From assembly GCA_041660105.1 (NCBI GenBank), contig JBAZWZ010000004.1, positions 176 through 64,175 of the forward strand: 64,000 nt of DNA, in the 5' to 3' direction. The notes beneath the pieces were generated by a model that saw only the letters and a program-made list of their open reading frames with translations, had not been told where the DNA came from and did not search any database. The translations under genes and the position numbers were made by a program. This stretch comes from Minisyncoccota bacterium. GTDB lineage: Bacteria; Patescibacteriota; Minisyncoccia; Phycocordibacterales; UBA1550. Each line of letters begins with the position of its first letter. Position 1 is the stretch's first letter. Below are positions 12,480-62,181 of this stretch, piece after piece.

Positions 12480-13529
12480 TTACTCCAAGTGGCTCGCAAC
12501 TTTCGCTACGTGCTTTACGAGTGTGTTGGTGTATCCCATTTCATTGTCGTACCACGAGAGCACCTTCACGAGATTACCATCTGCAACACGGGTCATTTCA
12601 AGGTCAGCGATAGCACCATAGAGCTCGCCCACAATATCCGAAGACACAATAGGCTCCTCACTCACTGTGAAGACTCCTTCCCAACGTGGATCCTTTGCAG
12701 CGTCGCGAAGTATCTGATTCACTTCTTCCGCTGAAGTGTTACGACTTGCGATAAATGTAATGTCTGCGATTGAGCCTGCGATAACCGGCACACGAATAGC
12801 AATACCATCAAACTTCCCAATGAGATCTGGCACCGCCTCAGTCACCGCAATAGCTGCCCCCGTTGAACCAGGAATCATATTCTGCGCAGCAGCTCGTCCA
12901 CCACGCAGGTCCTTTCCCCCAGGACCATCAACAATCTTCTGCGTTCCTGTGTATGCGTGCGTGGTGTTGAGGAGTGCCTTCTCAATACCAATAGCCTCGT
13001 GGAGGATATGGATGAGTGGTGATGCAGCGTTGGTTGTACACGAAGCATTTGACGAAATGTCACATGTTGCGAGCTTCTCTTCGTTGATACCCATAAGCAC
13101 GGTCACACCAGTGATACCTGGCACAACTGCTTCGCCCTTCACCGGAGCGGTGATGACTACACGCTTTGCCCCTGCATCGAGATGAACTTTTGATTTCTCA
13201 TAGCTCGTAAAGAAACCGGTCGACTCCACCACGATATCAATATTGTACTTTGCCCAAGGGAGCTTGGTTGCATCTTTTTCTTGAATAAGGAGAACTTTAT
13301 GTCCACCAACAATAAATCCAGGCTCCTCACTTTCTGCAGGAGGAACTACGGTCACTTCGAAATCAGCCTTGCCGTACGCAGTGTCGTATTTGAGGAGATA
13401 TGCCATGTTCTCAGGGTCACCGAGGTCATTCACTGCCACAATCTCAAACTCAGGACGTGTGCGTGCCAACTTATAAAATGCGCGTCCAATGCGCCCAAAC
13501 CCGTTAATAGCTACTCGTACTTTTCTCAT
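12480..13529 (-). CDS. gap: Glyceraldehyde-3-phosphate dehydrogenase
   Basis: INGFGRIGR NAD-binding motif; ASCTTN catalytic cysteine motif; 349 aa. Confidence 0.95.
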   Translation of the reverse strand: MRKVRVAINGFGRIGRAFYKLARTRPEFEIVAVNDLGDPENMAYLLKYDTAYGKADFEVTVVPPAESEEPGFIVGGHKVLLIQEKDATKLPWAKYNIDIVVESTGFFTSYEKSKVHLDAGAKRVVITAPVKGEAVVPGITGVTVLMGINEEKLATCDISSNASCTTNAASPLIHILHEAIGIEKALLNTTHAYTGTQKIVDGPGGKDLRGGRAAAQNMIPGSTGAAIAVTEAVPDLIGKFDGIAIRVPVIAGSIADITFIASRNTSAEEVNQILRDAAKDPRWEGVFTVSEEPIVSSDIVGELYGAIADLEMTRVADGNLVKVLSWYDNEMGYTNTLVKHVAKVASHLE

Positions 13530-13562
13530 GGTTGATTTTGTTGATTTACTTATCGAGCTACC

Positions 13563-13638
13563 GCGAAATTTAGAAAATCAACACCCCGTTAAATGATTTC
13601 TGAAAGAAATCCCTGCTTTGCAGGATTTAACTGGGGTA
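13563..13638 (-). repeat. Copy A of ~75-nt conserved leader element (nested hairpins) 35-110 nt upstream of gap
   Basis: Near-identical to 17021..17096. Contains the P1 inverted repeat CCCCAGTTAAAT/ATTTAACGGGG and an inner CCTGCAAAGCAGG hairpin. Confidence 0.45.
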
Positions 13639-13855
13639 GACAACCAAACTTCGCTACGCTCGTTATTTTATTAAAACTATCTCATTATTTTAACATATGC
13701 AGTTTGAGTTGCGAAACCCACTTTTCCGTCTTTGCGAGTACTCGAAGCAATCCAGAGCTCACCGCAGAAAATCCTGGATTGCCGCGCTTCGCTCGCAATG
13801 ACAATACATTGCGTTGTTTTTAGTCATCTATAAAAATAGTACACAGTTTTGTATG

Positions 13856-14080
13856 CTATTTTGCCTTCTTTTTTATTTGACTAACGCTCACAGAATGAAC
13901 CGCTCGTTTCAAAAACGGTGTCGGGGCTATCGTCGAAAATGAGATAGATTTATTTCTCACTAAATCTTTAAGTAGCGCATTTATAATAGCCGACAATGTA
14001 AACCCAAGCTCGTCAGCTACCTTCTGCGCCTCATTCTTAACCTTTGGATCTATTTTGATGTTTAGTACTGCTGTTTTCAT
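13856..14080 (-). CDS. RelB/DinJ-family ribbon-helix-helix antitoxin-like protein (no cognate toxin adjacent)
   Basis: 74 aa. An N-terminal beta-strand (VLNIKIDPKVKNEAQKVADELG) followed by two helices fits RelB/DinJ antitoxins. Confidence 0.55.
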   Translation of the reverse strand: MKTAVLNIKIDPKVKNEAQKVADELGFTLSAIINALLKDLVRNKSISFSTIAPTPFLKRAVHSVSVSQIKKKAK

Positions 14081-14127
14081 ATATATGACAAAGTATATAC
14101 TTTGTCATTATTACTGTCAATCAAAAA

Positions 14128-14415
14128 TTAGTCCTTGCAATACGATACCACTGTTGAGCCTAGTGATACATGACACTGAATATTTTGTGGGTTACTCTCA
14201 TCACAAAGCCAGTTCCCTCTTTCAACTTCATTTTGACAGATTCGCATATTCTGAAATTTAGCTGAAACAAAGCAGCCAGAATAAGCTGAGTCACATATTA
14301 TATATTTCACTGGGAATCTAAACTTTTCAATAAAAATCAAAGTGGTTAGTGTAAGAAAAACTACAATAAGTATTATTATCTTATATCTCTCTATAGATGC
14401 CATAATTGTTTTCAT
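14128..14415 (-). CDS. Small N-terminally anchored Cys-rich protein, unknown
   Basis: 95 aa; TM helix IIILIVVFLTLTTLIFI; six Cys in the C-terminal half. Confidence 0.35.
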   Translation of the reverse strand: MKTIMASIERYKIIILIVVFLTLTTLIFIEKFRFPVKYIICDSAYSGCFVSAKFQNMRICQNEVERGNWLCDESNPQNIQCHVSLGSTVVSYCKD

Positions 14416-14433
14416 ATGTTTTTAATTATACGC

Positions 14434-15861
14434 TTACTTCAGCGCTTCTCCAAAAAGCGCTTTGAGTGCTTCAGGGTTTGCAGAACCCTTGCTGGCTTTC
14501 ATTCCTTGCCCTACGAAGAACTGAATGAGGGCGACTTTGCCTGCTTTATAATCCTTAACGACATTTGGATTTGCAGAGAGAATTTCTGCGACTATTTTCT
14601 CAAGTGCTCCGTTATCATTATTTTGGATATATTTTTTTGCCACCTCTACTAAATCACCTCCTTGTGTAAAAATCTCACACAAAGAATCCTTTGCTCCACG
14701 AGACGAGAGTTCGCTAGCCATTATTCTAGTTACTAGCGCCATCATTCCCTCAGGGGTAATATTATTAAATCCATCGAGGCCATATTTTGCAACTAGACCA
14801 GCAATGTCGGAACAAATATAGTTTGCCAAAAGTCGAACTGCTTCTCCGTCTTTACTATGTGTAACCTCAAATTCATCCAGTTTGATAGTTTTATCAAAAA
14901 GTTCACCGTATCGCTTGTCGGCGACCAGTATCCCCACTTGTTCTGGGGCAATTCTAAAAGATAGGAGACGCTCACGCTTCTCCCAAGGGAGTTCGGGCAT
15001 TGTCGCCTTGAGTGCCTCATTTGAAAATTCAGGAATTTCTGAAATCTTGAGCTTTGGTAAATCTGGATCAGGGAAATAGCGGTAGTCGTGTGCTGACTCC
15101 TTCTTGCGCTGTGAATATGTCGCTTGCTTACCTTCATCCCATCCACGCGTCTCTTGCACTATCTCACCAGGGCCACCGTCGAGGATCGCTGTCATGCGTG
15201 CAACCTCGTACGCAATAGCACGCTCCACTGAACGGAACGAGTTCAAGTTTTTCACTTCCACTTTCGTACCGAGTTTATCTGTCTTTGATATTGAAATATT
15301 TGCCTCCACACGCATCTCTCCTTTCTCCATGTTTGCATCTGACACACCGAGTGTGCGGAGGAGGAGCTGGAGCTCACGAGCAAATGCGCCCGCCTCCTCT
15401 GCAGTGTGAATCACGGGCTTAGTCACGAGCTCCATGAGAGGCACGCCCGCGCGGTTGTAGTCAACGAGACTTGCGCTTCCTCCTTCGTGTGATGAGCTCG
15501 CAGTATCTTCCTCGAGATGCACACGCTCAATAGCGACGCCGTGGAGCTGTCCGTTTGATACAAGCGGATATTTGTACTGACTGATTTGATAGCCCTTCGG
15601 AATATCAGGATAGAAATAGTTCTTACGGTCAAACTCCGTGAAGTCTGCGAGGTCCGAGCCGAGCGCTGTCCCCACACGGAGTACGTGATGCACCGCCTGC
15701 TTGTTGATCACCGGCAAAGTCCCCGGGTGCGCCATGCAGACAGGGCAAATATTCACATTCGGCTCAGAATTGAACGGGTCGTTCGCCGAATTGCAGAACA
15801 TCTTTGTTTTTGTCTTGAGCTCAGCGTGAACCTCGAGCCCTACCGTAAGTTTGTAACTCAT
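14434..15861 (-). CDS. gatB: Asp-tRNA(Asn)/Glu-tRNA(Gln) amidotransferase subunit B
   Basis: 475 aa; VGLEVHAEL N-terminus; C-terminal YqeY-like tail. Confidence 0.95.
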   Translation of the reverse strand: MSYKLTVGLEVHAELKTKTKMFCNSANDPFNSEPNVNICPVCMAHPGTLPVINKQAVHHVLRVGTALGSDLADFTEFDRKNYFYPDIPKGYQISQYKYPLVSNGQLHGVAIERVHLEEDTASSSHEGGSASLVDYNRAGVPLMELVTKPVIHTAEEAGAFARELQLLLRTLGVSDANMEKGEMRVEANISISKTDKLGTKVEVKNLNSFRSVERAIAYEVARMTAILDGGPGEIVQETRGWDEGKQATYSQRKKESAHDYRYFPDPDLPKLKISEIPEFSNEALKATMPELPWEKRERLLSFRIAPEQVGILVADKRYGELFDKTIKLDEFEVTHSKDGEAVRLLANYICSDIAGLVAKYGLDGFNNITPEGMMALVTRIMASELSSRGAKDSLCEIFTQGGDLVEVAKKYIQNNDNGALEKIVAEILSANPNVVKDYKAGKVALIQFFVGQGMKASKGSANPEALKALFGEALK

Positions 15862-15895
15862 AAATGAGATTGTAGCATAAATATCCTCAAAGAAT

Positions 15896-15947
15896 AGCCA
15901 CTATCTACCTATTTTATACTATAGTATAAAATAGGTAGATAGTGGCT
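15896..15947. repeat. 52-bp perfect palindrome (24-bp arms AGCCACTATCTACCTATTTTATAC around TATA) ~35 nt upstream of gatB
   Basis: Read directly. Related to the 8782..8821 palindrome. Confidence 0.6.
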
Positions 15948-15956
15948 ATAACTAAC

Positions 15957-16007
15957 ACAAAGGGCCGCAAAAGAGCCGCAAACGCCAAGCGTTTGCGGCC
16001 CTTTGTT
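15957..16007 (-). terminator. Hairpin terminator downstream of obg (imperfect, with a duplicated GCCGCAAA segment)
   Basis: GGGCCGCAAACGC-CAAG-CGTTTGCGGCCC core followed by a T-rich tract. Confidence 0.5.
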
Positions 16008-16014
16008 GTTCATG

Positions 16015-16998
16015 TTATTTGTCCGCTTCCTTCAAGAGCTTCAAAAGGTCATCCTGGAACTTTTTCATTCCTTCGTCATCGAGGATAGTGATGGTGAATA
16101 TCTCTGAATCAGGGCAAGCCTTCTTCATTTCCTTTTCCACTTCCTTCACACGCTCAGGAGTAACCATGTCTGTCTTGGTGAGCACAATGATCTCATGCTT
16201 TGCGGCGAGTTCTTTGTCAAAAGCCTCGAGCTCCTTACGCACGGTCTTGTACACCTCAAGCGGATTCTCATTTTCAAGTGACACCAAGTGCGCAAGCATA
16301 TGCGTGCGCTTCACATGACGGAGGAACTTGTGTCCGAGACCCTTCCCTTCACTTGCTCCTTCAATGAGACCAGGGATGTCCGCAATGATGTAACCAAAAC
16401 AGTCACCAAGATTTGGCTCAAGAGTTGTAAAAGCATAGTCAGCGGTCTTTGCTCCTGCACGTGTGAGAGTATTGAGAAGTGATGATTTACCAGCATTTGG
16501 CAAACCAACGAGTCCGAGGTCCGCAACAATCTGAAGCTCAACTTTGAAGTCACCTTCTTGCCCGTGCATTCCTGGCACGTGCTCCTTCGGTGTGCGATTA
16601 GTAGATGTCTTGAAATGCTCATTACCAAAACCTCCACGTCCACCCTTAAGCACAAGAATTTTCTGATCTTCGTGGAGAAGCTCATACACTGCGCCTGTAT
16701 CGAGGTTGGTAACAATAGAGCCAATAGGCAAATCCAAAGCGAAGTCGTCACCATTTCTTCCATGGAGACTGTCATTACCACCATCGCCTGCGCGCTCAGC
16801 GGCAAAATCTTTTTGATGACGATACTTTATGAGTATGTGCACGTCACGAACAGCGTGGATGTATACATCCCCACCCTTTCCTCCATCACCACCAGAAGGA
16901 CCAGCAAATTCTTTGCCTTTCTCGTGTTTGAGACGCATAACGCCGTTGCCGCCGTTGCCCGCCTTCATATGCATTGTCATTTCATCGATAAAAGCCAT
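16015..16998 (-). CDS. obg: GTPase Obg/CgtA
   Basis: N-terminal glycine-rich Obg fold (AGNGGNG, GGDGGKGG), then the G-domain GLVGLPNAGKSSL. The track start is TTG, so the start was moved to the ATG (MAFIDEM...). Confidence 0.95.
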   Translation of the reverse strand: MAFIDEMTMHMKAGNGGNGVMRLKHEKGKEFAGPSGGDGGKGGDVYIHAVRDVHILIKYRHQKDFAAERAGDGGNDSLHGRNGDDFALDLPIGSIVTNLDTGAVYELLHEDQKILVLKGGRGGFGNEHFKTSTNRTPKEHVPGMHGQEGDFKVELQIVADLGLVGLPNAGKSSLLNTLTRAGAKTADYAFTTLEPNLGDCFGYIIADIPGLIEGASEGKGLGHKFLRHVKRTHMLAHLVSLENENPLEVYKTVRKELEAFDKELAAKHEIIVLTKTDMVTPERVKEVEKEMKKACPDSEIFTITILDDEGMKKFQDDLLKLLKEADK

Positions 16999-17020
16999 GA
17001 TTGTTTTTCTTAATGAGTTT

Positions 17021-17096
17021 GCGAATTTAGAAAACAATCACCCCGTTAAATGACTTTTTTAAAAAAGTCCCTGCTTTGCAGGATTTAACTGGGGTA
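17021..17096 (-). repeat. Copy B of ~75-nt conserved leader element, 25-100 nt upstream of obg
   Basis: Same blocks as copy A. The second hairpin differs (GACTTTTTT/AAAAAAGTC vs GATTTC-TTTCA-GAAATC) but keeps its pairing. Confidence 0.45.
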
Positions 17097-17176
17097 AGTA
17101 ATTCAATATATTAGCTCGCTCTCTATATGTATAGTGACTATATCACAAAAATTATAAAAAGTCTATCCCGTGAGAT

Positions 17177-45923: not shown

Positions 45924-46709
45924 ATGAAATTTAGTATTATTACACCAACATATAAACGCGCAGACAAACTTACTCGAGCTGTTGAGTCGGTTCTTAATCA
46001 AACTTACACAAACTGGGAAATGATTATTGTGAATGATTCTCCTGATGATGTCAGCTATTCATCATTTGAAAATTCTATTTCCGATCCACGTATTATTTAT
46101 TTAAACAACGAACAAAATTCAGGGGTAAACTATTCTCGCAATCGTGCTCTTGATAATATCTCAAAAGATTCTGATTGGGTAATCTTTCTCGACGATGATG
46201 ATTATTTTGCCACCGACGCACTTACCACGCTCCACGACCTCATACAAAATCACCTCAACAATAAGTGGTTTGTTACCAACCGCGCTCAGTCTAATGGCTC
46301 GTCGCTGACCCACTTCCCCGCTTCCGACACATCCTATCCTTATGCATGGGATTACCTCATTACCAAAAAATGTAAAGGTGACGCAACACACTGTATCTCT
46401 ACTTCACTCATAAAAAACATTCGTTTTTCAAAACATATTAAACAAGCGGAGGAATGGCTGTTTTTCTATCAAATCGGTTTACGTGAACAAATGTTTTACC
46501 ACAACCACAACAGCACACTGACCGATGGCTACAACGAATCCTCGGGCCTCAATTTCCGCAAACGCACAGCACCTGAGCAGCTCAAAACTCTCTTTGCGAT
46601 CAAACTTGAAGGATTTCGCCATAATTTAATCTGGCGTCCCACGTTCCTTATTTATCTATCTCTGAGATTTGTTCGCATTGGCGTCAAAAGTTTAAGTTTT
46701 AAGCCCTAA
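45924..46709 (+). CDS. Family-2 glycosyltransferase
   Basis: FSIITPTYKRADKL...IIVNDSPDD...FLDDDD GT-A motifs. Start moved to the ATG at 45924. Confidence 0.8.
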   Translation: MKFSIITPTYKRADKLTRAVESVLNQTYTNWEMIIVNDSPDDVSYSSFENSISDPRIIYLNNEQNSGVNYSRNRALDNISKDSDWVIFLDDDDYFATDALTTLHDLIQNHLNNKWFVTNRAQSNGSSLTHFPASDTSYPYAWDYLITKKCKGDATHCISTSLIKNIRFSKHIKQAEEWLFFYQIGLREQMFYHNHNSTLTDGYNESSGLNFRKRTAPEQLKTLFAIKLEGFRHNLIWRPTFLIYLSLRFVRIGVKSLSFKP

Positions 46710-47553
46710 TCCAACTATTTGGGCACAAATCATCATCATTTTTCAAAAAAGAGTTTCTCCAATCATTTGGACATATAATAATTGCTTCTTTGTGCTGATT
46801 AAGCATCGCCGCCCACCAAGAAAAAGATGAGTTTGCTATAATCGCATTTTTGCACTGTGCCATCAAAACAAGCTCCTCGTAATCCTTCAACCCGAGATCT
46901 GAGACATACACAACCCTACCACCAAGAAAACCAAGATTTTGTTTTGCCCATGAAACATCATCGGTGAAGACAAAATATTTCACATTCTTAAGTTTCTTTA
47001 AAACTATGTCATTCGCTCTTTCGTAATAAGAAATGTCGAGCACGCTTAGATCAGGGCCTGCATTTACATAATCGCCTCTTCGTATATGCAATGCAACTGA
47101 CTCAATATTTGAGAGCTCTTTTACTGCGTTATTAAACACGGAAGATGTGTCATCCTGTAAAGTGACTTCTTTCCTTAAATCCTCTATGCAAGGCTCTACA
47201 TAATGAAAGCTCTGCCAATATCCCTCTAGGTATGCCGAATCTACATCCTCCATTGAAGCAAGAAAATCCGACTCGTAGGAAATGTGATACTTTTTAAAAA
47301 CAAACTTATTGAGGGCTTTTTTAATTAAGTAAGTAAAAGTACCCTTGGTTTTCGCTATCTCATTATTATCCGCGATATTTACATCAATCTTAAATTTCTT
47401 CAAGAGAAGAGTTCTTGGAGTAACATTTTGCTGGTTATCAAATGAGGAAATATCATATTTGACCTCCTTGTTATATTCTTTTTCAATAGTCCTTCCAATT
47501 GCATACTGAAAAAGTTGGTTTCCAAGGCCTCCTTGTAATTTAATTATTATCAT
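46699..47553 (-). CDS. GT11-family alpha-1,2-fucosyltransferase
   Basis: N-terminal GGLGNQLFQYA motif, diagnostic of alpha-1,2-fucosyltransferases (FutC/WbgL-like); 284 aa. Confidence 0.85.
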   Translation of the reverse strand: MIIIKLQGGLGNQLFQYAIGRTIEKEYNKEVKYDISSFDNQQNVTPRTLLLKKFKIDVNIADNNEIAKTKGTFTYLIKKALNKFVFKKYHISYESDFLASMEDVDSAYLEGYWQSFHYVEPCIEDLRKEVTLQDDTSSVFNNAVKELSNIESVALHIRRGDYVNAGPDLSVLDISYYERANDIVLKKLKNVKYFVFTDDVSWAKQNLGFLGGRVVYVSDLGLKDYEELVLMAQCKNAIIANSSFSWWAAMLNQHKEAIIICPNDWRNSFLKNDDDLCPNSWIRA

Positions 47554-47559
47554 ATGAAA

Positions 47560-48309
47560 TTACTTTTTAACAAACCAGAAACAGCCGCAGCCGTAAATCT
47601 GTTTATCTGCAATTTCTTTTGTCGCGTCATATATCATACCAGTTTCTAAGGCATTATCTGGAATAAGCGAAAACTCTTTAAGAATGAGCTCTGGAAACAT
47701 TCCAATAACCATCTCATACGAGTATACACGATGTGCATTAAATTGAATTCTTGGAACACCCACAGGCACAACAAAAAGGAGATTACCACTCTTTGCAATA
47801 ACGCGAGAAAGTTCTTTAGCTGCAACCAAATCCCCTTCTGGGTCTATTTCGTCACCATAGCGACCAAGTCCCACATGCTCAACGGTATGCATACAAGAAA
47901 GAGAAGTTATTGAATCATTCTCAAAAGGCAAACTTAATAGATTCGCAGGTTTCGATATCAAATTCGATAAATTTAATTTAGCTGGTCGAAAATCATAAAA
48001 ACGAACTGTTTTAAATGCTGATACAATACCAGAAAAATACAAACTAGAAGAAATATCCACATGCTCCTTTGCGTCTATCTCTTTAACTTTTCGCGCAGCC
48101 CATGCAGTGTGATAAATATAATGAGTATCAAATCTTGTATAAGGTATATTTTCAAAAAGACACGGGAAAATGTCTAGAATAGAAATTTTAAACCTTTTTT
48201 GCTTATCTTTTGCCTTAAAAGAAACAAAGCTTCTAATGATGAGAGGAAGGAACAAGAATGATCTTATTGTAAAAACAAATCTTTTAACCCCGCGCAAGAA
48301 ATTAAACAT
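47560..48309 (-). CDS. Putative SAM-dependent methyltransferase (DUF268-like)
   Basis: Weak resemblance (SLSCMHTVEHVGLGRYGDEIDPEGDLVAAKELSRV) to the DUF268 putative methyltransferase family found in polysaccharide loci. Confidence 0.4.
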   Translation of the reverse strand: MFNFLRGVKRFVFTIRSFLFLPLIIRSFVSFKAKDKQKRFKISILDIFPCLFENIPYTRFDTHYIYHTAWAARKVKEIDAKEHVDISSSLYFSGIVSAFKTVRFYDFRPAKLNLSNLISKPANLLSLPFENDSITSLSCMHTVEHVGLGRYGDEIDPEGDLVAAKELSRVIAKSGNLLFVVPVGVPRIQFNAHRVYSYEMVIGMFPELILKEFSLIPDNALETGMIYDATKEIADKQIYGCGCFWFVKK

Positions 48310-48339
48310 ATCAAATTATATCAACAATAATTATCCGAT

Positions 48340-49275
48340 TTATTCTTTTGCTGGTTGTCCTTTAATAAACAACTCGGCTTGCTTTTGGTTTTCTGGGTGG
48401 ACAAAAAGTAGATTATCATATCGATAGCTTTCCTTATATTCATGCTTTTGCAAATATCCATCATTATCTATTTCATATCCAATATATCCATATTTTTTTA
48501 GGATTTCAATCGATTCCGTACAGTTTTTTGCCCACTCTTCATCTCCTCCCATCTCCAAAGTAACCAGAGGTTTAATATCTGTAAGGATATGCTGCATTGA
48601 TTGCAATATGAGATGTTCGGCCCCCTCTGCGTCTATTTTAATAAAGGTTGGTGAAACACCTTTATCTCTACAATAAGTATCGAGCGAAATCGCCTTGACC
48701 TTGATGCGATTAGCATCATCTAAAAACTTCATCTCTTCACTTGTTCGTGCTTTAAATGTGTTGAAAGCACTATACTTTGGTCCATAATCCACGAATTCTA
48801 TTTCAGTCTCCTTGTTTAGGACAGCATTATTATTTACCGTAATATTGCTTTTTTTTGATGCGTTTTCCTTTAGACTCTCAAATGTGCGCGGTGTTGGCTC
48901 AAAGCTATGCACCTGACCACTAGATTCAACAAGAGTGCTTGCAAGAATAGAGTAATAACCTACATGAGCTCCAACATCAAAAAATACATCTCCTTTTCTA
49001 AGGAAATTAATTAAAAAATTGGTAAGGTTTGCCTCCAGGAAACCATAGTAATAAATAGCGCTCCCCTCTGGCAAGTAAAACCTCATTGTATCTCCCCAGA
49101 GTGTCTTGTGGGTCACCTTAAAGGGGTGCAGATACGCAAAGCTTTGCAATATATAAAATGGGATTGTTCGTATTGGGTCTTTCAAAAGCCTCCTCATTCT
49201 ATGAGGCTGCAGCTTATAGAGCTCATATCTCTTGAGAACCATTTTTTTTAGATCTGCTCGTTGTTTTTCGTCCAT
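48340..49275 (-). CDS. FkbM-family methyltransferase
   Basis: FFDVGAHVGYYS...FEPTP...IKIDAEGAE motifs of Methyltransf_21/FkbM. Confidence 0.8.
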   Translation of the reverse strand: MDEKQRADLKKMVLKRYELYKLQPHRMRRLLKDPIRTIPFYILQSFAYLHPFKVTHKTLWGDTMRFYLPEGSAIYYYGFLEANLTNFLINFLRKGDVFFDVGAHVGYYSILASTLVESSGQVHSFEPTPRTFESLKENASKKSNITVNNNAVLNKETEIEFVDYGPKYSAFNTFKARTSEEMKFLDDANRIKVKAISLDTYCRDKGVSPTFIKIDAEGAEHLILQSMQHILTDIKPLVTLEMGGDEEWAKNCTESIEILKKYGYIGYEIDNDGYLQKHEYKESYRYDNLLFVHPENQKQAELFIKGQPAKE

Positions 49276-49407
49276 TTTTTTATTATATTAGTTTTAAGAA
49301 TAATAGCATATTTCTTTATATTTATATAATGCAACATATTGCGAATTTATCGTAAACTACGTTGAGGTGTATACTGATAAATATCGCTAATTATAAATTA
49401 GGGGTCC

Positions 49408-50094
49408 TTGGCGCAAACAATTATGAAATTAACTACATTTGACGAATTCCGTGCACAATTTCGTGATTTTTATCATTCTGTAAAAACGGGACACGAAAAT
49501 ACAAAAAAACAGTCTCATGGCGGTCACGGTATTGACCATGATATCACCGTAGCAATGATTGCTGTAAAAATATCTGACGACGAACGTATCGGACAAAAAG
49601 CTTGGTGCGCCGCTATGCTTCACTCTGTAGACCGCGTAGTGGGAGCATCCGACATCAAAGACACAATGATGAAGCACGCCGAGTACCTGAAACACTTCTT
49701 TAGTCAAAATGAGATAGACGAAATAATTGAAGCTGCATTTCGCCATTCCGAACGAAACCAGATAGATCAGAGCGAAACTCAAATTACATTAATGGACGCA
49801 GACAGACTTGCAAATATGCAGTCTGCAGTAATTATACGTTCTGGGCAATTTAGACCCGATATACCAGTTTTTGATTTTAAATATCTCTCGGGTGCGATAG
49901 ACCCCCTATCAACTTACGAAGATCCAAAAAGTGTAATTGATGATCTACGATTATGCATAATAAATTATATTCCACAGCTGAGAAATAAAGAAGCAAAGCA
50001 TCTTGGTAATATATACGCAGAGAAACTTAATGCCTATATTAGATCGATTGAGGACGAAAATGAGTATTTTGGCCTAACAAATATTGAGATATAA
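49408..50094 (+). CDS. HD-domain phosphohydrolase
   Basis: H...HD (GHGIDHDITVAM) ... H ... D (LMDADRLANM) metal-ligand pattern. Confidence 0.6.
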   Translation: MAQTIMKLTTFDEFRAQFRDFYHSVKTGHENTKKQSHGGHGIDHDITVAMIAVKISDDERIGQKAWCAAMLHSVDRVVGASDIKDTMMKHAEYLKHFFSQNEIDEIIEAAFRHSERNQIDQSETQITLMDADRLANMQSAVIIRSGQFRPDIPVFDFKYLSGAIDPLSTYEDPKSVIDDLRLCIINYIPQLRNKEAKHLGNIYAEKLNAYIRSIEDENEYFGLTNIEI

Positions 50095-50115
50095 AATAGC
50101 AACCTCAAAAGTATC

Positions 50116-50634
50116 GTGATTAAAGAAATTCTCGCATTTTTCATAAAATTTATCAATCCACATAAACCGCTTGGAACGGCGTTGTTTAATGCAGTTGCAA
50201 GAGTTAGCATATCTGTTGCTTTTGAAGCAGTAGCTTTGCGTAAAAACCCTATAAATGGCGAAACTGAAATCTACCTAATAATGCGAGTAAATGATTCTTC
50301 TTTCCCAGGACAATGGCATGTTCCTGGATCAATCTTAAGACCGAAAGAAGACGACGAGCATGTCTTTGCTCGTCTTGGTAATAAAGAATTTGGAGCAAAA
50401 ATTGTTAAATCAAAATTTATTGCAATAGTATCCTTTCCAGAAGAACCTCGTGGTCATATTATCTCTTTGGTATACAGCGTAGAACTAGACAAAGAACCTA
50501 CAGGTGGTGGCAAATGGTTCCCTGTTGACAAATTACCAACCAATTTGGTTCTCTATCATAAAGAATATATTATTCCTGTCGCAATTAATGAAGAGAATTT
50601 TGAAAGTGTTAGTATTAGAATATCAGGGATCTAA
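50116..50634 (+). CDS. Possible degenerate NUDIX-fold protein
   Basis: Weak Nudix-box-like segment GSILRPKEDDEHVFARLGNKEFGAKI. Low confidence. Confidence 0.35.
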   Translation: MIKEILAFFIKFINPHKPLGTALFNAVARVSISVAFEAVALRKNPINGETEIYLIMRVNDSSFPGQWHVPGSILRPKEDDEHVFARLGNKEFGAKIVKSKFIAIVSFPEEPRGHIISLVYSVELDKEPTGGGKWFPVDKLPTNLVLYHKEYIIPVAINEENFESVSIRISGI

Positions 50635-50674
50635 ATCAACCTCATAGCATAGTACGTAATAATATTTCAAGCGA

Positions 50675-51607
50675 CTATTTTGACATGTTGTCTATTTTAC
50701 TTATCTCGCTCTCTATCCCCTTCAGTGAGGAATATTCTGGTACATATCCAATCGTTCCAGCTTTTTTGTTTTTTGAATAATACACATTCTTTGATACTCC
50801 CGTAATGGGTTTCGGTATTTTGTTAATAACATATTTTAGTCCGTATTTTTTCTCTAAAAAAGAAAGGAGGGTGAGTTTTGAGATAGGAGCCTTGCTATAC
50901 ACATCAAAGAAATCATTTATCTTACCTTTCTTCATAACCTTCTTGATTAGAGAAAGTAGGTCTTTTGGAGTGATGTAATCTCTAACAATATTATTGTCAT
51001 CCGTTTTGAAAACTTTTTTGCTTTTCAGACAATCAACGATTTCCGAAATCATAAAATTTGGACTAACATCATAAAAACGGCTAAAAAATGCAAATACTCG
51101 CAAGTCAACAATATTTAGATTCGACAGCGACCTGTGCTTCGCTTCTGAATTCAATTTTGCAATGGCATACGATTCAGAAACATCAATGTTGTTGATATCC
51201 AAAACTGACTTCGTCTTACTACTTATTGATTTGTGGAAATTATCGCCATACACCGCTCCACTACTCATATTGATATATAGTGCTTTTGGATTTTTCAAAA
51301 GATACCTAATAACCATACTGTCGACTTCCTCAGTAGCACTAAAGACCTCTGATGGGTTCTGTTTCAAACTATTGAGACTTTTTATGCCAGTGCAGTTTAT
51401 AATCACATCGTAATTATATTTGTTAAATTCCCCGATTTCACAGATTTGAAAATTTATGTCTTTGGGATATTTTTTTACGATGGTGTGAACCTTACTTTTT
51501 GTTCGAGAAAACAAGAACAACTGAGACTTATCCTTTTCATCAAAAAACTCCCGGAGGAGTGACCTCCCGATATATCCCGTCGCTCCAAGTAAGGCTATTT
51601 TTTTCAT
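50675..51607 (-). CDS. NAD-dependent epimerase/dehydratase (extended SDR) family protein
   Basis: N-terminal LLGATGYIGRSL Rossmann motif; 310 aa. Confidence 0.75.
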   Translation of the reverse strand: MKKIALLGATGYIGRSLLREFFDEKDKSQLFLFSRTKSKVHTIVKKYPKDINFQICEIGEFNKYNYDVIINCTGIKSLNSLKQNPSEVFSATEEVDSMVIRYLLKNPKALYINMSSGAVYGDNFHKSISSKTKSVLDINNIDVSESYAIAKLNSEAKHRSLSNLNIVDLRVFAFFSRFYDVSPNFMISEIVDCLKSKKVFKTDDNNIVRDYITPKDLLSLIKKVMKKGKINDFFDVYSKAPISKLTLLSFLEKKYGLKYVINKIPKPITGVSKNVYYSKNKKAGTIGYVPEYSSLKGIESEISKIDNMSK

Positions 51608-51621
51608 AGTACAGGCAAAAA

Positions 51622-52254
51622 TTAATGTGTTTTTATGAAATCCAAAATTTCATTATACTCGCTTGCAAGCAAATCAGGATTTTCAACCTTAAGAACCTTT
51701 TCACTATGGAAACCCCAGGTTACAGCAATAGTAAGTATATTTGAATTTACCATCCTGGCTTCCTTAATATCACCCGTCGTATCAGTAATGAAAAAGACTT
51801 CCCCCCCTTTTTTATCCTTAAGTGTACTTTGGAAAAACAGGTTTTTGGGTTGGGAATTTTGTCCGATAATTTTGGTAAAATAATCCACTAACCCATAAGA
51901 TTCTAGAATATTTATAATCAATTCTCTTGGGGAGGAACTGACAATCCATAACTCTCCAAGATCTCTTGCTTTTACTACTAATTCTTTGGAAAAGCTAAAA
52001 AGCTTAACCTCCTGCGTGCGGTAATAACTAGGAAAAAGATCTGCTTTGATTTCAATGAGCCGTCGTTTTTCTTCTTCATTTAAATTCAGTAATATCGCTA
52101 GACGCTGGTTAATGTGTCCACCAAAACAAGACAGATATTCATCCATCGTCAATGTTTTATTGATTTGCGAGACAGCTTCCTTGTTCATTTTGAAAACCGT
52201 GTTAACAGAATCTGCCAACACTCCATCAAAATCAAAAATGATTACTTTGCTCAT
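51622..52254 (-). CDS. HAD-superfamily phosphatase
   Basis: IIFDFDGVLADS motif I; C-terminal D-containing motif. Confidence 0.75.
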   Translation of the reverse strand: MSKVIIFDFDGVLADSVNTVFKMNKEAVSQINKTLTMDEYLSCFGGHINQRLAILLNLNEEEKRRLIEIKADLFPSYYRTQEVKLFSFSKELVVKARDLGELWIVSSSPRELIINILESYGLVDYFTKIIGQNSQPKNLFFQSTLKDKKGGEVFFITDTTGDIKEARMVNSNILTIAVTWGFHSEKVLKVENPDLLASEYNEILDFIKTH

Positions 52255-52263
52255 GGGTAAGGT

Positions 52264-52797
52264 CTAGAATTCAGCTAACAAGGCTTTCATAAACATGCCT
52301 ATGTCGCGTGGATGACGAGACGTGATCATATTGCCATCAATTACAACTGGTTGATCTATGTATTCTGCTCCTGCATTTACAATGTCATCCTTTATTCCAA
52401 TATACCCTGTTGCTTTTTTCCCCCTAAGCAGCCCAGCTGAAATTAAAATCCACGGGCCATGGCAAAACGCAGCTACAATTTTCTTTTTCTTGTACATCTC
52501 CTGAACAAATTCTAAAACCTCTTTTATTTGACGAACACGGTCTGGGGCTTCAAAGCCACCAGGCAATAGTACCAAGTCATAGTCCTCAGCCCTTAATTTC
52601 TTTGCGTCCACTAGCCTACCATAATACTTAACCATAAGTTCTAGTGGAAAATTCATTCGACCCACCACTAGTTTTGCATCTTTTGTGGCAATGTCCACTT
52701 CAAAACCTTCCTCATGTAAACGCATAATTGGATACATAACTTCTTCGTCCTCGAACGCCTCTGCGGTAATAATTACAACTCTTTTATTTTTTTTCAT
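52264..52797 (-). CDS. DJ-1/PfpI-family protein (class I glutamine amidotransferase-like)
   Basis: AAFCHGPWIL nucleophile-elbow Cys; 177 aa. Confidence 0.8.
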   Translation of the reverse strand: MKKNKRVVIITAEAFEDEEVMYPIMRLHEEGFEVDIATKDAKLVVGRMNFPLELMVKYYGRLVDAKKLRAEDYDLVLLPGGFEAPDRVRQIKEVLEFVQEMYKKKKIVAAFCHGPWILISAGLLRGKKATGYIGIKDDIVNAGAEYIDQPVVIDGNMITSRHPRDIGMFMKALLAEF

Positions 52798-52846
52798 ATT
52801 TTAATATATTTATATTGTATGTTAATTCATCAGAATCTATTAGCGT

Positions 52847-54649
52847 TTACTCTTCCAGGGGTTTAATAAACATGTTACCTAAAAATTCTTGACGGTCCAA
52901 AAATGGGTACATGTCCTCCAGGGGTTTACTAACCATCGTGCCGTCTGCCAATTTCTCGGAAAAGACCTTGGGGAGCAGAGCCTGAGTGGGGGCCATTTTA
53001 ATATCACAAATTACTGGGCCGTCATAATTCAATGCCTGAAGAATTTTCTCCTCTACCTCGTCTTGATTTTCCATTTTAATATAGCCTAATCCAAATGTTT
53101 CGGCAACTTTTGAAAAAGGTGGAAAACTTACCCCAGACGTTGGGTCAACCGCGGCTAGATTGCCATTAAAAAAGGAATTTTGGGTATTTTTAATTGCTAG
53201 ATAGCCGTTATTGTTAAGCAAGAAAATTTTAACTGGTATTTTATAATGAGAAATTGTTTGTAATTCTTGAAGATTTAACATAATACTCCCATCCCCAGTA
53301 ATCAGGATAATCCGTTTTTTGCCAGTTGCAAACCAAGCTCCAATTGCGGAAGGCAAATCATAGCCCATAGAAGCACAACCGACACTGGAATGCAATCGCT
53401 GTCCTTTTTTTATTTTAAAAGCTTGGAGGGTCCCCGTAAAAGAAGTCCCAACGCCTGTCATTATAATCTCTCCTTCCTCCAATGTGCCAGAGAGAACCTT
53501 GGTGAAATAATACGAATTAACATAGTCTTTTTCATCTTTATATTCAGGAAGAACTACTGGGTATTTTCCCTTCCACTTTTGACAGCATTCAATCCATTCT
53601 TTTGTGTCCGCACTCAAAGATATTTGTTTATCCATTTCTTTTATAAATGCTTTTGCGTCAACATTAATAGATAAATCAGGAACAACTGTTTTTTTCTTTA
53701 ATTCCTCTATGTCGATGTCTACAACAACTTTCTTAGCACCTCGCGCGAATGCTGTATATGTGTATCCAATATTCCATAAATGATGACGGGCCCCTATACT
53801 AATTAACAAATCTGCGTTTTGGACAGTAAAATTTCCAGAGCGATCACCAAAAACACCTGGTCGTCCTATAAACAACGGACTATCTGAAGGGATTAGATCG
53901 TGTGCTGACATAGAAGTAAGCACGGGTATTTGCAGTTTTTCGGCGAGCGCTAAAAATTCTTGTTCTGCTTTCGCCAAACGAATACCATGCCCAGCGAGGA
54001 TAACTGGCCGCTTAGCCTCTTTAATCCAAGTTACAAGAGTTTCCACTTGCGATGACAAGCTGTTTCTATTCACTAGAAGCAGACCTTCCTCTTGTGCACT
54101 AAATTCCCTAAGATCACTCTCATCAACTTCCATAGCCTGGATATCCGATGGTATATCAAGGAGAACTGGGCCCGGTCGTCCATTTTTTGCCAAAAAAGTA
54201 GCTTTTTGTAGATGGTATTTGATATCGGCAACGTTTAGGACAACCTCAGAATACTTGGTTATGGGCCGCGCAATATCAGCGATGTTAATTTCTTGTACAC
54301 CAAGTTGGCGCAGATGGGTACCTGTTATCATATTGTCACGTTTAACCTGACCGCAGATATAGAGTGTGGCGATAGAATCTGTCCAAGCACCCATAATACC
54401 AGTGAGTGTATTTGTTGCGGCGGGGCCAACGGTTGTGATGCAGACACCAATGTTGCCACCTGTTCTTCCATAACTTTCAGCAGCCATTGCACAGGCCTGC
54501 TCGTGGTGATTACATACATATTTCAGCTTTGAACTATTCGCAATTGAGTTAACAAGGTGCATGTTAGCACCTCCTGGCATCAAAAAAATATGCCTAACAC
54601 CGAGTGCAGCAATGTAGTCAACTATCAAATCTGATACTTTTATTTTCAT
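52847..54649 (-). CDS. Thiamine-diphosphate-dependent enzyme of the acetolactate-synthase/YerE family
   Basis: 600 aa. N-terminal TPP-pyrimidine domain, central domain, and C-terminal TPP-binding GDG(x)24-27NN motif (ILITGDGSIMLNLQEL...LLNNNGY). Confidence 0.85.
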   Translation of the reverse strand: MKIKVSDLIVDYIAALGVRHIFLMPGGANMHLVNSIANSSKLKYVCNHHEQACAMAAESYGRTGGNIGVCITTVGPAATNTLTGIMGAWTDSIATLYICGQVKRDNMITGTHLRQLGVQEINIADIARPITKYSEVVLNVADIKYHLQKATFLAKNGRPGPVLLDIPSDIQAMEVDESDLREFSAQEEGLLLVNRNSLSSQVETLVTWIKEAKRPVILAGHGIRLAKAEQEFLALAEKLQIPVLTSMSAHDLIPSDSPLFIGRPGVFGDRSGNFTVQNADLLISIGARHHLWNIGYTYTAFARGAKKVVVDIDIEELKKKTVVPDLSINVDAKAFIKEMDKQISLSADTKEWIECCQKWKGKYPVVLPEYKDEKDYVNSYYFTKVLSGTLEEGEIIMTGVGTSFTGTLQAFKIKKGQRLHSSVGCASMGYDLPSAIGAWFATGKKRIILITGDGSIMLNLQELQTISHYKIPVKIFLLNNNGYLAIKNTQNSFFNGNLAAVDPTSGVSFPPFSKVAETFGLGYIKMENQDEVEEKILQALNYDGPVICDIKMAPTQALLPKVFSEKLADGTMVSKPLEDMYPFLDRQEFLGNMFIKPLEE

Positions 54650-54659
54650 AAATTATTAT

Positions 54660-55427
54660 CTAACCAACAATTAAACTAATGAATCCTTCTTTTGGAATAG
54701 AGTCAGTTTTTAAAGACCTGAGTAAATCTTTTGCCTCAGCAATCTCACCAATACCTAGTAATATTTGCCCTTCTTCATTCGTCAATTTATAATTCAACGG
54801 ACAAAATATTTTCCCTTTTTCTTGACTTATTTTTTCTTGAAGCTGTTCCAACGTAGTAAAATTACAAATCCTTATCACCCTGTCTTTTATCAACTTCTGA
54901 ACTTCCTCAGTTTCCTCTGCCTCATTATGAAAATCGCAGTAATGATAATTTTCAAGATTACGTGAAATAGACGCACCGCTCTCATAGCCAAGGGCCTCTC
55001 TTCCATATTCATCCTTGAGACGTACTAGGTCGCTCTTTTTTACTGGTGTTTCAATTTCCATAACAAATGAACCGTGAGTAGATACAGATTTTGTAGAATG
55101 AAAAACTCCGCGCTCAATAATAATGCCGTCCATACTTTTTAACATAAAAAGTGAGTCTAGCGATGAAGTTTCAACTTCTCCACCCAAAACCAAGAGGGAC
55201 GTCTTTTTTTTAGGATGGCAATGGGTTGAAGTCTTTGCTTTATGCTTCAGAAACAACACCCAGACAGCAACGTCCTTATTCTCGAACATTAAATACTCAT
55301 AACCCCAGGGCTTATCCACCACCACACATTTATAATCTACCTCTTCTTCTGAACATGGAACAACTGTACGTTCCAAAGACATATTAAAAAGATCTAGTTC
55401 GTTTGGAAAAATTTTTTTAATCATCAT
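54660..55427 (-). CDS. Cupin-domain protein
   Basis: KPWGYEY and STHCHPKKKTSLLVLGGEVE match cupin motif 1, G(x)5HxH(x)3-4E(x)6G. Start uncertain (55424-55463). Confidence 0.5.
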   Translation of the reverse strand: MMIKKIFPNELDLFNMSLERTVVPCSEEEVDYKCVVVDKPWGYEYLMFENKDVAVWVLFLKHKAKTSTHCHPKKKTSLLVLGGEVETSSLDSLFMLKSMDGIIIERGVFHSTKSVSTHGSFVMEIETPVKKSDLVRLKDEYGREALGYESGASISRNLENYHYCDFHNEAEETEEVQKLIKDRVIRICNFTTLEQLQEKISQEKGKIFCPLNYKLTNEEGQILLGIGEIAEAKDLLRSLKTDSIPKEGFISLIVG

Positions 55428-56208
55428 TATTTTTAAATAACCAAGATTCAGAATTTTCCTCAAATGACTTATTCAGTGATTTGCGCTCCCTGTCGTTGTC
55501 AACGCATTGCCAAAAACCACGGTGCTCAAATATGTTAATTTGATTATTGTTAACTAACTTTTCAAAAACCTCATTTTCCAAAATACATTCATTGTACGGA
55601 GTAAGATAATCAAATATTTTATTTTTTAAAACCATAAACCCTCCGTTTACTAATCCATTCTGGCTTTGTAATTTAGATATCCTTTTATACTCGACTGGGT
55701 TACCGTCCTTCATAATAAACTCACCATATCTAAATGGGGGGAAGATGCCACTGACCGTTGCAAGCTTACTCTGCTTTTTATGAAAACTAACCAACTTCTT
55801 GATGTCTATATCAGCCAAACAATCAGAATAAGCAAGCAAAAAGTCTTCCTCGCCTAAATATTTTTGACATCTAGACAAACGAGCCCCCGTGCCACTTTCT
55901 TCTCCAGTCTCTACAAAAGTAATTTTCCAATCTTCTTCTTGGTTTTGAGTATTGTAAGTTAATTTTGATTGACCAAGTGCCAATGTTAAATCATTAACAT
56001 TTTCATTGTAGTGCAAGAAGTAATCACGTATAATTTCTCCTCCTGAACCTAGTGCTAGGACAAATTCGTTGTATCCATATCCAGAGTATATTTTCATTAC
56101 GTGCCACAAAAGAGGCCTGTGCCCAATCTTTACCATACCTTTCGGTATAAAATCTAATGAGTCATCAAACCTAATTCCTTTTCCACCGCAAAGAATTGCA
56201 ACTTTCAT
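55417..56208 (-). CDS. Divergent sugar-1-phosphate nucleotidyltransferase paralog (RfbF-like, degenerate GGxGTRL motif)
   Basis: Colinear with the adjacent rfbF-like gene, but N-terminal CGGKGIRF replaces GGLGTRL, and SDCLADID replaces YGDGVADVD. Confidence 0.65.
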   Translation of the reverse strand: MKVAILCGGKGIRFDDSLDFIPKGMVKIGHRPLLWHVMKIYSGYGYNEFVLALGSGGEIIRDYFLHYNENVNDLTLALGQSKLTYNTQNQEEDWKITFVETGEESGTGARLSRCQKYLGEEDFLLAYSDCLADIDIKKLVSFHKKQSKLATVSGIFPPFRYGEFIMKDGNPVEYKRISKLQSQNGLVNGGFMVLKNKIFDYLTPYNECILENEVFEKLVNNNQINIFEHRGFWQCVDNDRERKSLNKSFEENSESWLFKNNDD

Positions 56209-56305
56209 AAAATACTTTTTATATGTTGCAACTATACAAAAAATGATGGGTCAAGTCAAATACATGTATTAGTTCACTACACCATTATAAATCACGAATT
56301 TTATA

Positions 56306-57076: not shown

Positions 57077-57081
57077 ATTAT

Positions 57082-57351
57082 TTATCCGAGAAAATTTTTA
57101 CTAATAAAAAAATTGTTTAAGACCCTTTTGATGTGATTTCGTCCGTATTGTGTTTTCATATACTTTTCTCGATTATATGCATCTTTACTATTAATGTACG
57201 CTTCATAGTAAATAATTGCAAACGGTGCATTTCTTTTTGTTGAGGCAACTTTTTTTGCATTATGCAATACCAACCGAGCCTTTTTATCTTTCGTACAACC
57301 TGTGTATAATTCACCATTCTTTTTACTCTCAAGTATGTAAACGTATTGCAT
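57082..57351 (-). CDS. Free-standing GIY-YIG nuclease-domain protein (UPF0213-like)
   Basis: YVYILES...GELYTGCTKD...R...H, an 89-aa single-domain GIY-YIG. Confidence 0.75.
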   Translation of the reverse strand: MQYVYILESKKNGELYTGCTKDKKARLVLHNAKKVASTKRNAPFAIIYYEAYINSKDAYNREKYMKTQYGRNHIKRVLNNFFISKNFLG

Positions 57352-57369
57352 AATGAGTTAGTAAAAACT

Positions 57370-58458: not shown

Positions 58459-58560
58459 ACAAAAATAGGTAGAGTGACACGTATTTATTGCCTATTCTTC
58501 AAAAAAGGATTATACTTTCTCTATTATTATTGATAGTAACATAAAAAACCCAGTAAGAAC

Positions 58561-59784: not shown

Positions 59785-59809
59785 TAGTGCTTAAAGTGTT
59801 TTCAAAAAA

Positions 59810-61236: not shown

Positions 61237-61239
61237 TTT

Positions 61240-62163: not shown

Positions 62164-62181
62164 TTTAAAAACTAATTAAAA

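Follow-up and report, generated by a model that had tools for sequence, protein, structure and literature searches.

Results

An element shared by gap and obg

The DNA analyzed here, referred to as the window, is a 64,000-nucleotide (nt) stretch from a Minisyncoccota bacterium (GenBank assembly GCA_041660105.1, contig JBAZWZ010000004.1, positions 176 to 64,175 of the forward strand). Two of its minus-strand genes, gap and obg, are each preceded by a copy of the same structured, palindromic element, which is the subject of this report. A sequence-only reading of the window had noted related blocks at 13563..13638 and 17021..17096; both are present, co-oriented on the minus strand, and they share a 29-mer (TCCCTGCTTTGCAGGATTTAACTGGGGTA) and a 15-mer (CACCCCGTTAAATGA) exactly. 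Each of these words occurs exactly twice in the 64-kb window, with 0.00 occurrences of the 29-mer expected from shuffles. When the copies are aligned, TACCCCAGTTAAATCCTGCAAAGCAGGGA and CATTTAACGGGGTG are identical throughout and the flanks on either side are similar, and the homology reaches further upstream into a left arm (GAGCGTAGCGAAG... in one copy, GAGAGCGAGC... in the other). The blocks end 33 nt (gap) and 22 nt (obg) from the ATG, closer than the 35–45 nt first estimated. From its outer stem (P1) to the ATG the element measures about 105 nt, or about 130–135 nt including the left arm; the branched core, in which P1 encloses hairpins P2 and P3, occupies 53–54 nt and is followed by a further hairpin, P4. 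The features of the two loci are these:

13687..13692, minus strand: -10 box TAAAAT of the native gap promoter, with TGT before it, upstream of the element (promoter scan)
13637..13661, minus strand: left arm of the gap copy, GAGCGTAGCGAAGTTTGGTTGTCTA, with complementarity to both the loop and the 5' strand of P4
13584..13636, minus strand: core three-way junction of the gap copy (fold; covariance model, 86.7 bits)
13625-13636, 13612-13624, 13595-13611 and 13584-13594, minus strand: P1 5' strand, P2, P3 and P1 3' strand of the gap copy
13530..13583, minus strand: P4 region of the gap copy, with 5' strand UGUUGAUUUU and a loop containing UUUCGCGGUAGCUCG
13539-13547 and 13531-13539, minus strand: tandem candidate 3' strands of the gap P4, AAAUCAACA and AAAAUCAAC, before the ATG
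12480..13529, minus strand: gap, glyceraldehyde-3-phosphate dehydrogenase (GAPDH), ATG at 13527-13529 (Pfam Gp_dh_N and Gp_dh_C)
17137..17142, minus strand: -10 box TATAGT of the native obg promoter, within TGTGATATAGT, upstream of the element (promoter scan)
17095..17123, minus strand: left arm of the obg copy, GAGAGCGAGCTAATATATTGAATTACTTA (alignment, promoter scan)
17105-17110, minus strand: second -10-like hexamer, TATATT, in the obg left arm, 10 nt before P1
17041..17094, minus strand: core three-way junction of the obg copy (fold; covariance model, 102.7 bits)
17083-17094, 17070-17082, 17052-17069 and 17041-17051, minus strand: P1 5' strand, P2, P3 and P1 3' strand of the obg copy
16998..17040, minus strand: obg P4 hairpin, UGAUUGUUUUC ... 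GAAAAACAAUCA, in which pairing ends on the A of the AUG
16015..16998, minus strand: obg, GTPase Obg, ATG at 16996-16998 (Pfam GTP1_OBG and MMR_HSR1)

The gap product begins MRKVRVAING, as it does in relatives, and homologues of Obg (326–327 amino acids) likewise start with MAF. These homologues belong to Yonathbacteria, Nomurabacteria, Pacebacteria and Minisyncoccia, that is, to bacteria of the candidate phyla radiation (CPR) of the Parcubacteria type. Searches of the window with patterns, regular expressions and the covariance model found no third copy of the element; a ATCTAACGGGG match at 27255 falls within a coding region and was rejected as a chance match. The GAGCGAAGCGA motif shows no enrichment (18 matches in the window, 13.4 expected), and a tRNA/tmRNA scan found none.

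Folding of the core

On the coding strand both copies fold as a three-way junction, with P1 formed by CCCC-A-GUUAAAU/AUUUAACGGGG and P2 by CCUGCAAAGCAGG. P3 differs in sequence yet pairs in both copies (GAUUUC..GAAAUC versus GACUUUUUU..AAAAAAGUC). An outer stem enclosing two hairpins, the second of which changes sequence while keeping its pairing, was what the sequence-only reading had described, and the calculated folds uphold it: energies are -25.1 (gap) and -26.5 (obg) kcal/mol, with z scores of -4.8 and -5.1 and 0 of 200 shuffles as good. Its more general description, a structured, strand-oriented cis element common to two unrelated housekeeping genes, also stands. The opposite strand folds nearly equally (-24.1 and -24.2 kcal/mol), and the strand is therefore not identifiable from folding alone.

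Inverted half-sites of this kind could be a duplex-DNA operator for a transcription factor (half-sites GTTAAAT/ATTTAAC), or the hairpins could form an intrinsic terminator or attenuator. The half-sites are indeed conserved, and a terminator scan flags the inner P2 hairpin with its U-run in both copies. However, the half-sites lie anywhere from 15 to 45 nt apart, the space being filled by hairpins that change sequence while pairing, which does not suit an operator. As for termination, which calls for a GC-rich stem running straight into a U-tract, P1 does not score in the scan and is followed in the window copies by UGAUUG or UGUUGA, without a U-tract, which also removes the attenuator proposed earlier; P3 is not U-rich in most members of the wider family described below, and short members are A-rich on both sides, with an A-rich tail after P1. 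We consider both explanations very improbable.

A gene-fitted helix at the start codon

P4 follows directly after P1. In the obg copy it appears in both the minimum-energy and the centroid structure, and in the gap copy UGUUGAUUUU has two possible partners, tandem AAAUCAAC-type strands ahead of the ATG. The helix, a U-rich strand against the A-rich leader, has a calculated stability of about -7 to -11 kcal/mol and differs between gap and obg by compensating changes (GUUGAUUUU/AAAAUCAAC versus GAUUGUUUU/AAAACAAUC). Across the family, RNAalifold recovers P1 and P4, and 5 of 11 P4 pairs have changed on both sides, a level that 0 of 500 shuffles reach and that collapses when the register is slid. 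At rnc, the partner of the P4 5' strand UCCAUAAUUUU is AAAAUUAUGGA, which comprises the AUG and two coding bases; the helix is thus tailored to its gene. Only 1 of 242 genes matches the P4 3' strand, which is therefore no general leader motif of the host genomes. The 5' strand of P4 is the stretch that had been taken for a conserved -35/-10-like promoter (TTGATTTTCTAAATT) downstream of the fold. This assignment was wrong: the stretch is not identical in the two copies (TGTTGATTTTCTAAATTT versus TGATTGTTTTCTAAATT) and pairs towards the start codon, and the native promoters lie upstream.

The left arm is complementary to the P4 loop in the two window copies (UUCGCGGUAGCUC / UUCGCAAACUC), and in most copies of the family (z about 0 to -5.5). 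With the left arm included, the full gap leader folds as one long hairpin (-50.1 kcal/mol, z -5.2), and the gap arm:loop duplex alone reaches -20.8 kcal/mol, with 0 of 200 shuffles as good. The left-arm/P4-loop duplex is 2 kcal/mol better on the sense than on the antisense strand (p = 0.02, weak support). As modeled, this pairing crosses P4 and would give rise either to a pseudoknot or to alternative structures. Some sequence changes fit the left arm as a partner of the P4 loop, and others fit it as a self-contained mini-hairpin.

Native promoters and leader length

Shine-Dalgarno motifs are almost absent from the window (3 of 49 long open reading frames). They precede 3–14% of genes in hosts of both forms of the element, as opposed to 46% in Desulfobacterales loci. 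Many ATGs in the window have an extended -10 box only 10–35 nt before them, suggesting that leaders are normally very short or absent, and a structured leader of about 130–150 nt is thus exceptional in this genome. Conserved native promoters lie upstream of the element at both gap (TGTTAAAAT) and obg (TGTGATATAGT). The gap promoter (TGnTAAAAT with GATAGTTTTAAT) is conserved in relatives that have no element, and the obg promoter TGTGATATAGT is conserved in loci L149 and L119. Lying between native promoter and ATG, the element is predicted to be part of the transcribed 5' untranslated region (5'UTR), read in its sense direction. Some 100 nt before the gap promoter, at 13725-13800, is an imperfect palindrome (GCGAGTACTCGAAGCAATCCAG ... 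CTGGATTGCCGCGCTTCGCTCGC) that contains GAGCGAAGCG/CGCTTCGCTC as in the element arms; relatives have a plain terminator hairpin there.

The sequence-only reading had also raised a mobile promoter cassette. We considered a form of it in which the element would mainly provide an outward-facing promoter and transcripts would start at the P1 foot. Ten of 22 window-like copies, including obg, have a TATAAT-like hexamer ending 6–12 nt before P1, the promoter scan finds TATACA-17-TATATT at 17133-17105, and an internal promoter would be useful within operons such as rplJ-rplL and ssb-rpsR. Yet the gap copy and 11 others have no such hexamer; where it occurs, there is neither a TG extension nor a consistent -35, though host promoters are of the extended -10 type; and copies lie downstream of recognizable native promoters and MraZ boxes, as at mraZ, where they follow the native promoter and its GTGGG boxes. 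The promoter initially proposed is itself the P4 5' strand, and P4 and the fixed link to the AUG would be left unexplained. A promoter role is possible for one subfamily of copies, but as a general account we find it decidedly unlikely. Of the three suggestions made in the sequence-only reading, the "mobile cassette" nonetheless came closest, since the element is absent in relatives and recurs elsewhere.

Recent gain at orthologous loci

The obg-gatB-gap neighbourhood is syntenic in relatives. Before obg, the element is absent in L149 (Obg 97% identical), L118 (94%), L150 (89%), L119 (85%) and L120 (79%); before gap, it is absent in L118, L119 and L120. The covariance model gave no match in the relatives lacking the element at these sites. 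L150 and L151 carry a divergent copy before gap, with the same left junction (...AAATAAC followed by GAG) and unrelated P2 and P3. These comparisons show a recent gain of the element at obg, and the gap site is either an insertion hot spot or a place of repeated loss. Direct repeats resembling AAATAAC / AAATCAAC flank the gap copy. At rnc, a copy (87 bits, with U.G wobbles in P1 and P2) is present in the metagenome-assembled genome (MAG) that is the window's 94% relative and absent in four more distant relatives, three of which have nusB-rnc spacers of 7–16 nt, a pattern indicating that the element was gained in one subclade and then kept. The sequence-only reading would have given up its RNA-leader view if these two copies were the only ones and orthologous gap and obg loci in close relatives lacked the element. 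Orthologous loci without it do exist; copies are many elsewhere, however, and under selection.

A dispersed family

We scanned genomes, one per species, for P1 arms with any 15–45 nt between them, and found at least 117 loci; a metagenome scan for the window-like form added 28 more. Among the matches listed, the hosts are Moranbacteria and other Parcubacteria (about 10 or more matches in single MAGs), Yonathbacteria, Nomurabacteria, Doudnabacteria and Saccharibacteria and, outside CPR, Desulfobacterales, other Thermodesulfobacteriota and Nitrospinaceae. Matches also come from a few low-GC MAGs that bear the label Gammaproteobacteria or Bdellovibrionales, taken here as given. Set beside the two copies in the 64-kb window, MAG UBA12142 and GW2011_GWC1_36_108 have at least 10 exact-stem matches each.

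The 143 distinct P1 interiors comprise 95 with one hairpin, 34 with two and 14 with none (median z -2.0). The family thereby keeps structure inside P1, not sequence. Short members, 38–41 nt long, are without P4 and the loop motif. Conserved sequence is found in P1 itself and in the P4-loop motif UCGCUNYGCUC, which has UAA on its flanks; within P1–P3 the unpaired nucleotides of junction and loops are not conserved, and P2 and P3 change as whole hairpins from copy to copy. In Desulfobacterales the P1 variants covary (TTAAAT/ATTTAA, TGAAAT/ATTTCA, TTGAAT/ATTCAA).

Desulfobacterales copies are often nested, and excising the inner unit leaves precisely the common 43-nt unit, as in L071. These nested insertions imply that some of the family is DNA that moves or is prone to insertion, built on the unit CCCC...GGGG with a four-base YARR tail. 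They occur without target-site duplication. Two sets of inverted repeats are present, the P1 arms and the left-arm/P4-loop arms, and conserved element sequence continues past the right arm to the ATG. Several further arrangements were seen. In L143 (7650-7930) a complete second unit with a long AT-rich interior precedes a window-like copy, and L143, L045, L062, L064, L077, L106 and L112 have tandem, degenerate or inverted extra copies directly upstream of intact ones, an arrangement like that of bacterial interspersed mosaic elements (BIMEs). The Desulfobacterales loci L015, L050, L056, L061 and L066 have nested units amid short G-rich repeat runs (GGGATCAGG, GGTTCAGGG and similar). In L070 (Moranbacteria UBA2282, minus strand, about 6041) a two-hairpin member is found where the homologous region of L117 appears continuous; this member may sit inside a gene or between its two halves.

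Comparison with Rfam, which had been proposed as a check, gave no match at the element, whether for the whole window (gathering thresholds), for the locus (E values up to 10) or for 16 related loci. Viral contigs yielded no match to the stem pattern. Literature searches with the stem sequences returned only unrelated primers, and searches by keywords for CPR repeats and leaders returned no description of the element. It is a large repeat family of Patescibacteria (CPR), outside Rfam, which we assign to no named family.

Position, gene association and selection

Copies in CPR are tied to start codons. Among low-GC CPR loci with the short form, 34 of 56 sit 6–14 nt before a co-oriented start codon, with promoters a variable 25–50 nt further upstream; judging by N-terminal sequences, the downstream genes include eno, dnaK, nusA, rplL, rpmG and guaB, along with genes for pilin-like proteins and many for small membrane proteins. 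All of the approximately 20 distinct window-like copies end at the ATG. By Pfam, the genes that follow them encode RNase III, MraZ, the ribosomal proteins L10, L7/L12, L27, S18 and L2, elongation factor G (EF-G), RecA and a SET-domain protein (gene names rnc, mraZ, rplJ, rplL, rpmA, rpsR, rplB, fusA and recA). Some copies lie inside operons (rplW-rplB, rplJ-rplL, ssb-rpsR). The copies in Desulfobacterales are not tied to start codons.

At orthologous genes, in a set collected by exact-pattern search, the element is 63–96% identical outside the searched motifs, as compared with 21–67% at four-fold sites. For rnc in L027 and L068, the proteins are 80% identical, the four-fold third positions 33%, and the element 91% (87% outside the search motifs). 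The same excess of element conservation over four-fold sites is found at mraZ, rplJ, rplL, eno and others.

A module conserved before so many core genes could be a sensor RNA, an operator through which a protein, small RNA or ligand, acting in trans as a global regulator, would control the translation apparatus and core genes together. In its favour, rplJ, rplL, rpmA, rpsR, rplB, fusA, rnc, obg, recA, mraZ and gap are all preceded by this module; the sequences of P1 and of the P4-loop motif are conserved, purifying selection acts on the element, and a start codon within a helix could be switched by an effector. Nevertheless, P1–P3 have no conserved unpaired nucleotides and P2 and P3 are exchanged wholesale, the short forms do without P4 and the loop motif, no Rfam family matches, and even at rnc, gap and obg close relatives differ in whether they carry the element. 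We judge a sensor of this kind rather unlikely. Two narrower versions, both raised by the sequence-only reading, were rejected: a riboswitch, which would have conserved ligand-pocket nucleotides in its junctions or loops and serve one pathway, because only the helix sequences and the P4 loop are conserved and the genes are diverse, and a gene-specific ribosomal-protein autoregulatory leader, which would be tied to a single operon and imitate the rRNA site of its protein, because the module precedes at least 12 different genes, at least 5 of them for ribosomal proteins and others as different as gap, obg, recA, mraZ and rnc.

Other features of the window

Throughout the window (1-64000) GC skew is negative and most genes are on the minus strand. 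In the last third, from about 46000 to 64000, the GC content falls from 0.42–0.48 to 0.34–0.39, which may mark an island of distinct composition. A perfect 66-nt AT-rich palindrome (…TAGCCACTATCTACCTATTTTATACTATAGTATAAAATAGGTAGATAGTGGCTA…) occupies 15889-15954, with the obg terminator hairpin (15975-15999) on one side and the gatB promoter on the other. Among 152 loci the only other one to have it was L152, which is a contig of a different sample and encodes an identical Obg; the palindrome gave spurious matches to microRNA families in Rfam. A perfect 24-nt palindrome at 14085-14108 (ATGACAAAGTAT/ATACTTTGTCAT) overlaps a near-consensus promoter, TTGACA-17-TATACT (14120-14092), upstream of a RelB-family antitoxin gene (13856-14080, minus strand), and is probably the antitoxin's operator. 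Toxin-antitoxin genes at the gatB-gap position vary among relatives, with RelB/YafQ in L119 and HicA in L150. The leader of a translational-GTPase paralogue (547-2331), at 2332-2390 on the minus strand, contains GGATTTTCT...AAATCAATCACATG, which faintly resembles P4; it is without P1–P3, and we judged the resemblance coincidental.

Discussion

On balance, we lean towards the reading that the blocks before gap and obg are copies of a modular palindromic element, similar to repetitive extragenic palindromes (REPs) or miniature inverted-repeat transposable elements (MITEs), that was copied recently into 5'UTRs and serves there as an RNA leader gating the start codon. The module would act in cis, as RNA, in a host with short leaders and without Shine-Dalgarno motifs. 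P4 would occlude the start codon and its A-rich approach, setting or gating translation initiation, and the stable P1–P3 clamp probably also shields or delimits the mRNA in its 5' part. P4 could plausibly be opened when the left arm pairs with the P4 region, which makes this pairing a possible switch. Spread would be duplicative, as for REPs and MITEs, through some enzyme or recombination, and selection would keep the element once it lies before a highly expressed gene.

Several observations weigh against this reading. Its main weakness is that G.U pairs show no strand preference: P1–P3 have 45 in the sense and 61 in the antisense direction, and the P4 region folds slightly better on the antisense strand, with no G.U support for the sense strand. 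The helices are therefore near-pure Watson-Crick palindromes, as expected of elements acting at the DNA level. The minimum-energy fold of the gap leader leaves the AUG free, which means that occlusion of the start codon is not uniform. At five further rnc loci sampled without pattern bias, only one has the element, and the exact-pattern search by which the conservation set was collected is biased towards conserved members.

One alternative is that the copies are purely selfish DNA, like REPs, BIMEs or MITEs, tolerated in short 5'UTRs; the hairpins would then be recognized by a transposase or recombinase, and the RNA would have no role. Besides the near-perfect palindromes and the absence of a sense-strand G.U excess, the nesting of element within element, the presence/absence differences among close relatives, the combination of conserved arms with a variable interior as in MITEs, the inverted repeats formed by left and right arms, and the independence of Desulfobacterales copies from start codons all agree with it. 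It does not readily explain why CPR copies are strictly co-oriented at a fixed position relative to the start codon, why the P4 strand is tailored to each gene's AUG context, or why conservation at orthologous genes is far above that of synonymous sites; on inspection, the downstream genes are also strikingly often translation genes. We give purely selfish DNA a modest chance of being the whole explanation.

A bolder version of the leader reading, which we put forward only tentatively, is that the element is a self-propagating 5'-leader cassette that lands at start codons or is retained only there: a mobile, structure-based module for ribosome entry or gating that builds up a lineage-specific "translation regulon." In CPR bacteria without Shine-Dalgarno sequences, its RNA would take over initiation of highly expressed genes, those for ribosomal proteins, EF-G, RNase III, Obg and GAPDH, and the last helix might help choose the insertion site through base pairing.

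The nearest known kind is the REP/BIME/REPIN group of elements of Proteobacteria, in which REPIN-RAYT systems have a cognate RAYT (Y1/HUH transposase) gene flanked by the repeats. A REP is a small (20–40 bp) palindromic unit that carries GTAG or CGTC as an unpaired terminal tag; most REPs are found downstream of coding regions, where neighbouring genes are unidirectional or convergent, and some have been reported inside genes (PMC3733652). Like REP/BIME/REPIN-RAYT elements, the present family is made of short, imperfect palindromes; their stem base is conserved, a bulge gives them polarity and one end has a short unpaired tail. Several copies occur in some genomes, in tandem, inverted and mosaic clusters, predicted to be co-transcribed with neighbouring genes and in one case perhaps lying inside a gene. 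Unlike them, it has no GTAG or CGTC tag; its tail is YARR after GGGG (TAAA, CAAG, CAGG, TGAA), or YYTR before CCCC on the other strand. CPR copies are directly upstream of co-oriented start codons, not downstream of genes; at more than 100 nt, the window form combines a three-way junction with a hairpin at the start codon; and the hosts are CPR.

Correia/NEMIS elements in Neisseria and the BOX and RUP elements of Streptococcus pneumoniae are small, non-coding, inverted-repeat MITEs found near gene starts and co-transcribed; they form long hairpins, may carry promoter boxes, and alter mRNA processing or stability. The present element resembles them functionally, as a modular inverted-repeat element that would remodel 5'UTRs. 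It differs in having no clear target-site duplication, in ending at the start codon with a last helix matched to the gene, and in being selected at orthologous genes. The MS2 operator hairpin and the RNA thermometers fourU and ROSE occlude the initiation region, pair with the Shine-Dalgarno sequence, and serve one gene or regulon. Shared with such translational operators and thermometers are, in the predicted folds, a weak AU-rich helix at the start region beside a stabler structure and a bulged A in a conserved stem; here, in contrast, there is no Shine-Dalgarno sequence, and the module is dispersed and mobile.

Integron attC sites likewise keep structure while sequence varies, and have hairpins of variable length, a branchable tip and an extrahelical base. 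The stem base fits GTTRRRY/RYYYAAC (GTTAAAT, ATTTAAC), and Desulfobacterales are among the hosts. However, both strands of the element read 5'-GTTAAAT...ATTTAAC-3', whereas attC reads 5'-RYYYAAC...GTTRRRY-3'; with the order of the boxes reversed, we rejected attC and Xer/dif readings of GTTAAAT/ATTTAAC. The window contains no cassette array or integrase.

CPR bacteria (Patescibacteria) make up a large share of bacterial diversity, are mostly uncultured, and control gene expression in ways that are little understood. Our results suggest that in these organisms a widespread structured module, absent from Rfam, stands at the start codons of translation-machinery and core genes, selected where it is fixed and still being copied to new genes. 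If it is a control device at the RNA level, it would offer a testable handle on translation initiation, and on the coordination of initiation, in CPR. If it is mainly mobile DNA, it would be a REP-like family with an unusual niche 5' of genes, and a useful marker of recent genome change in CPR populations.

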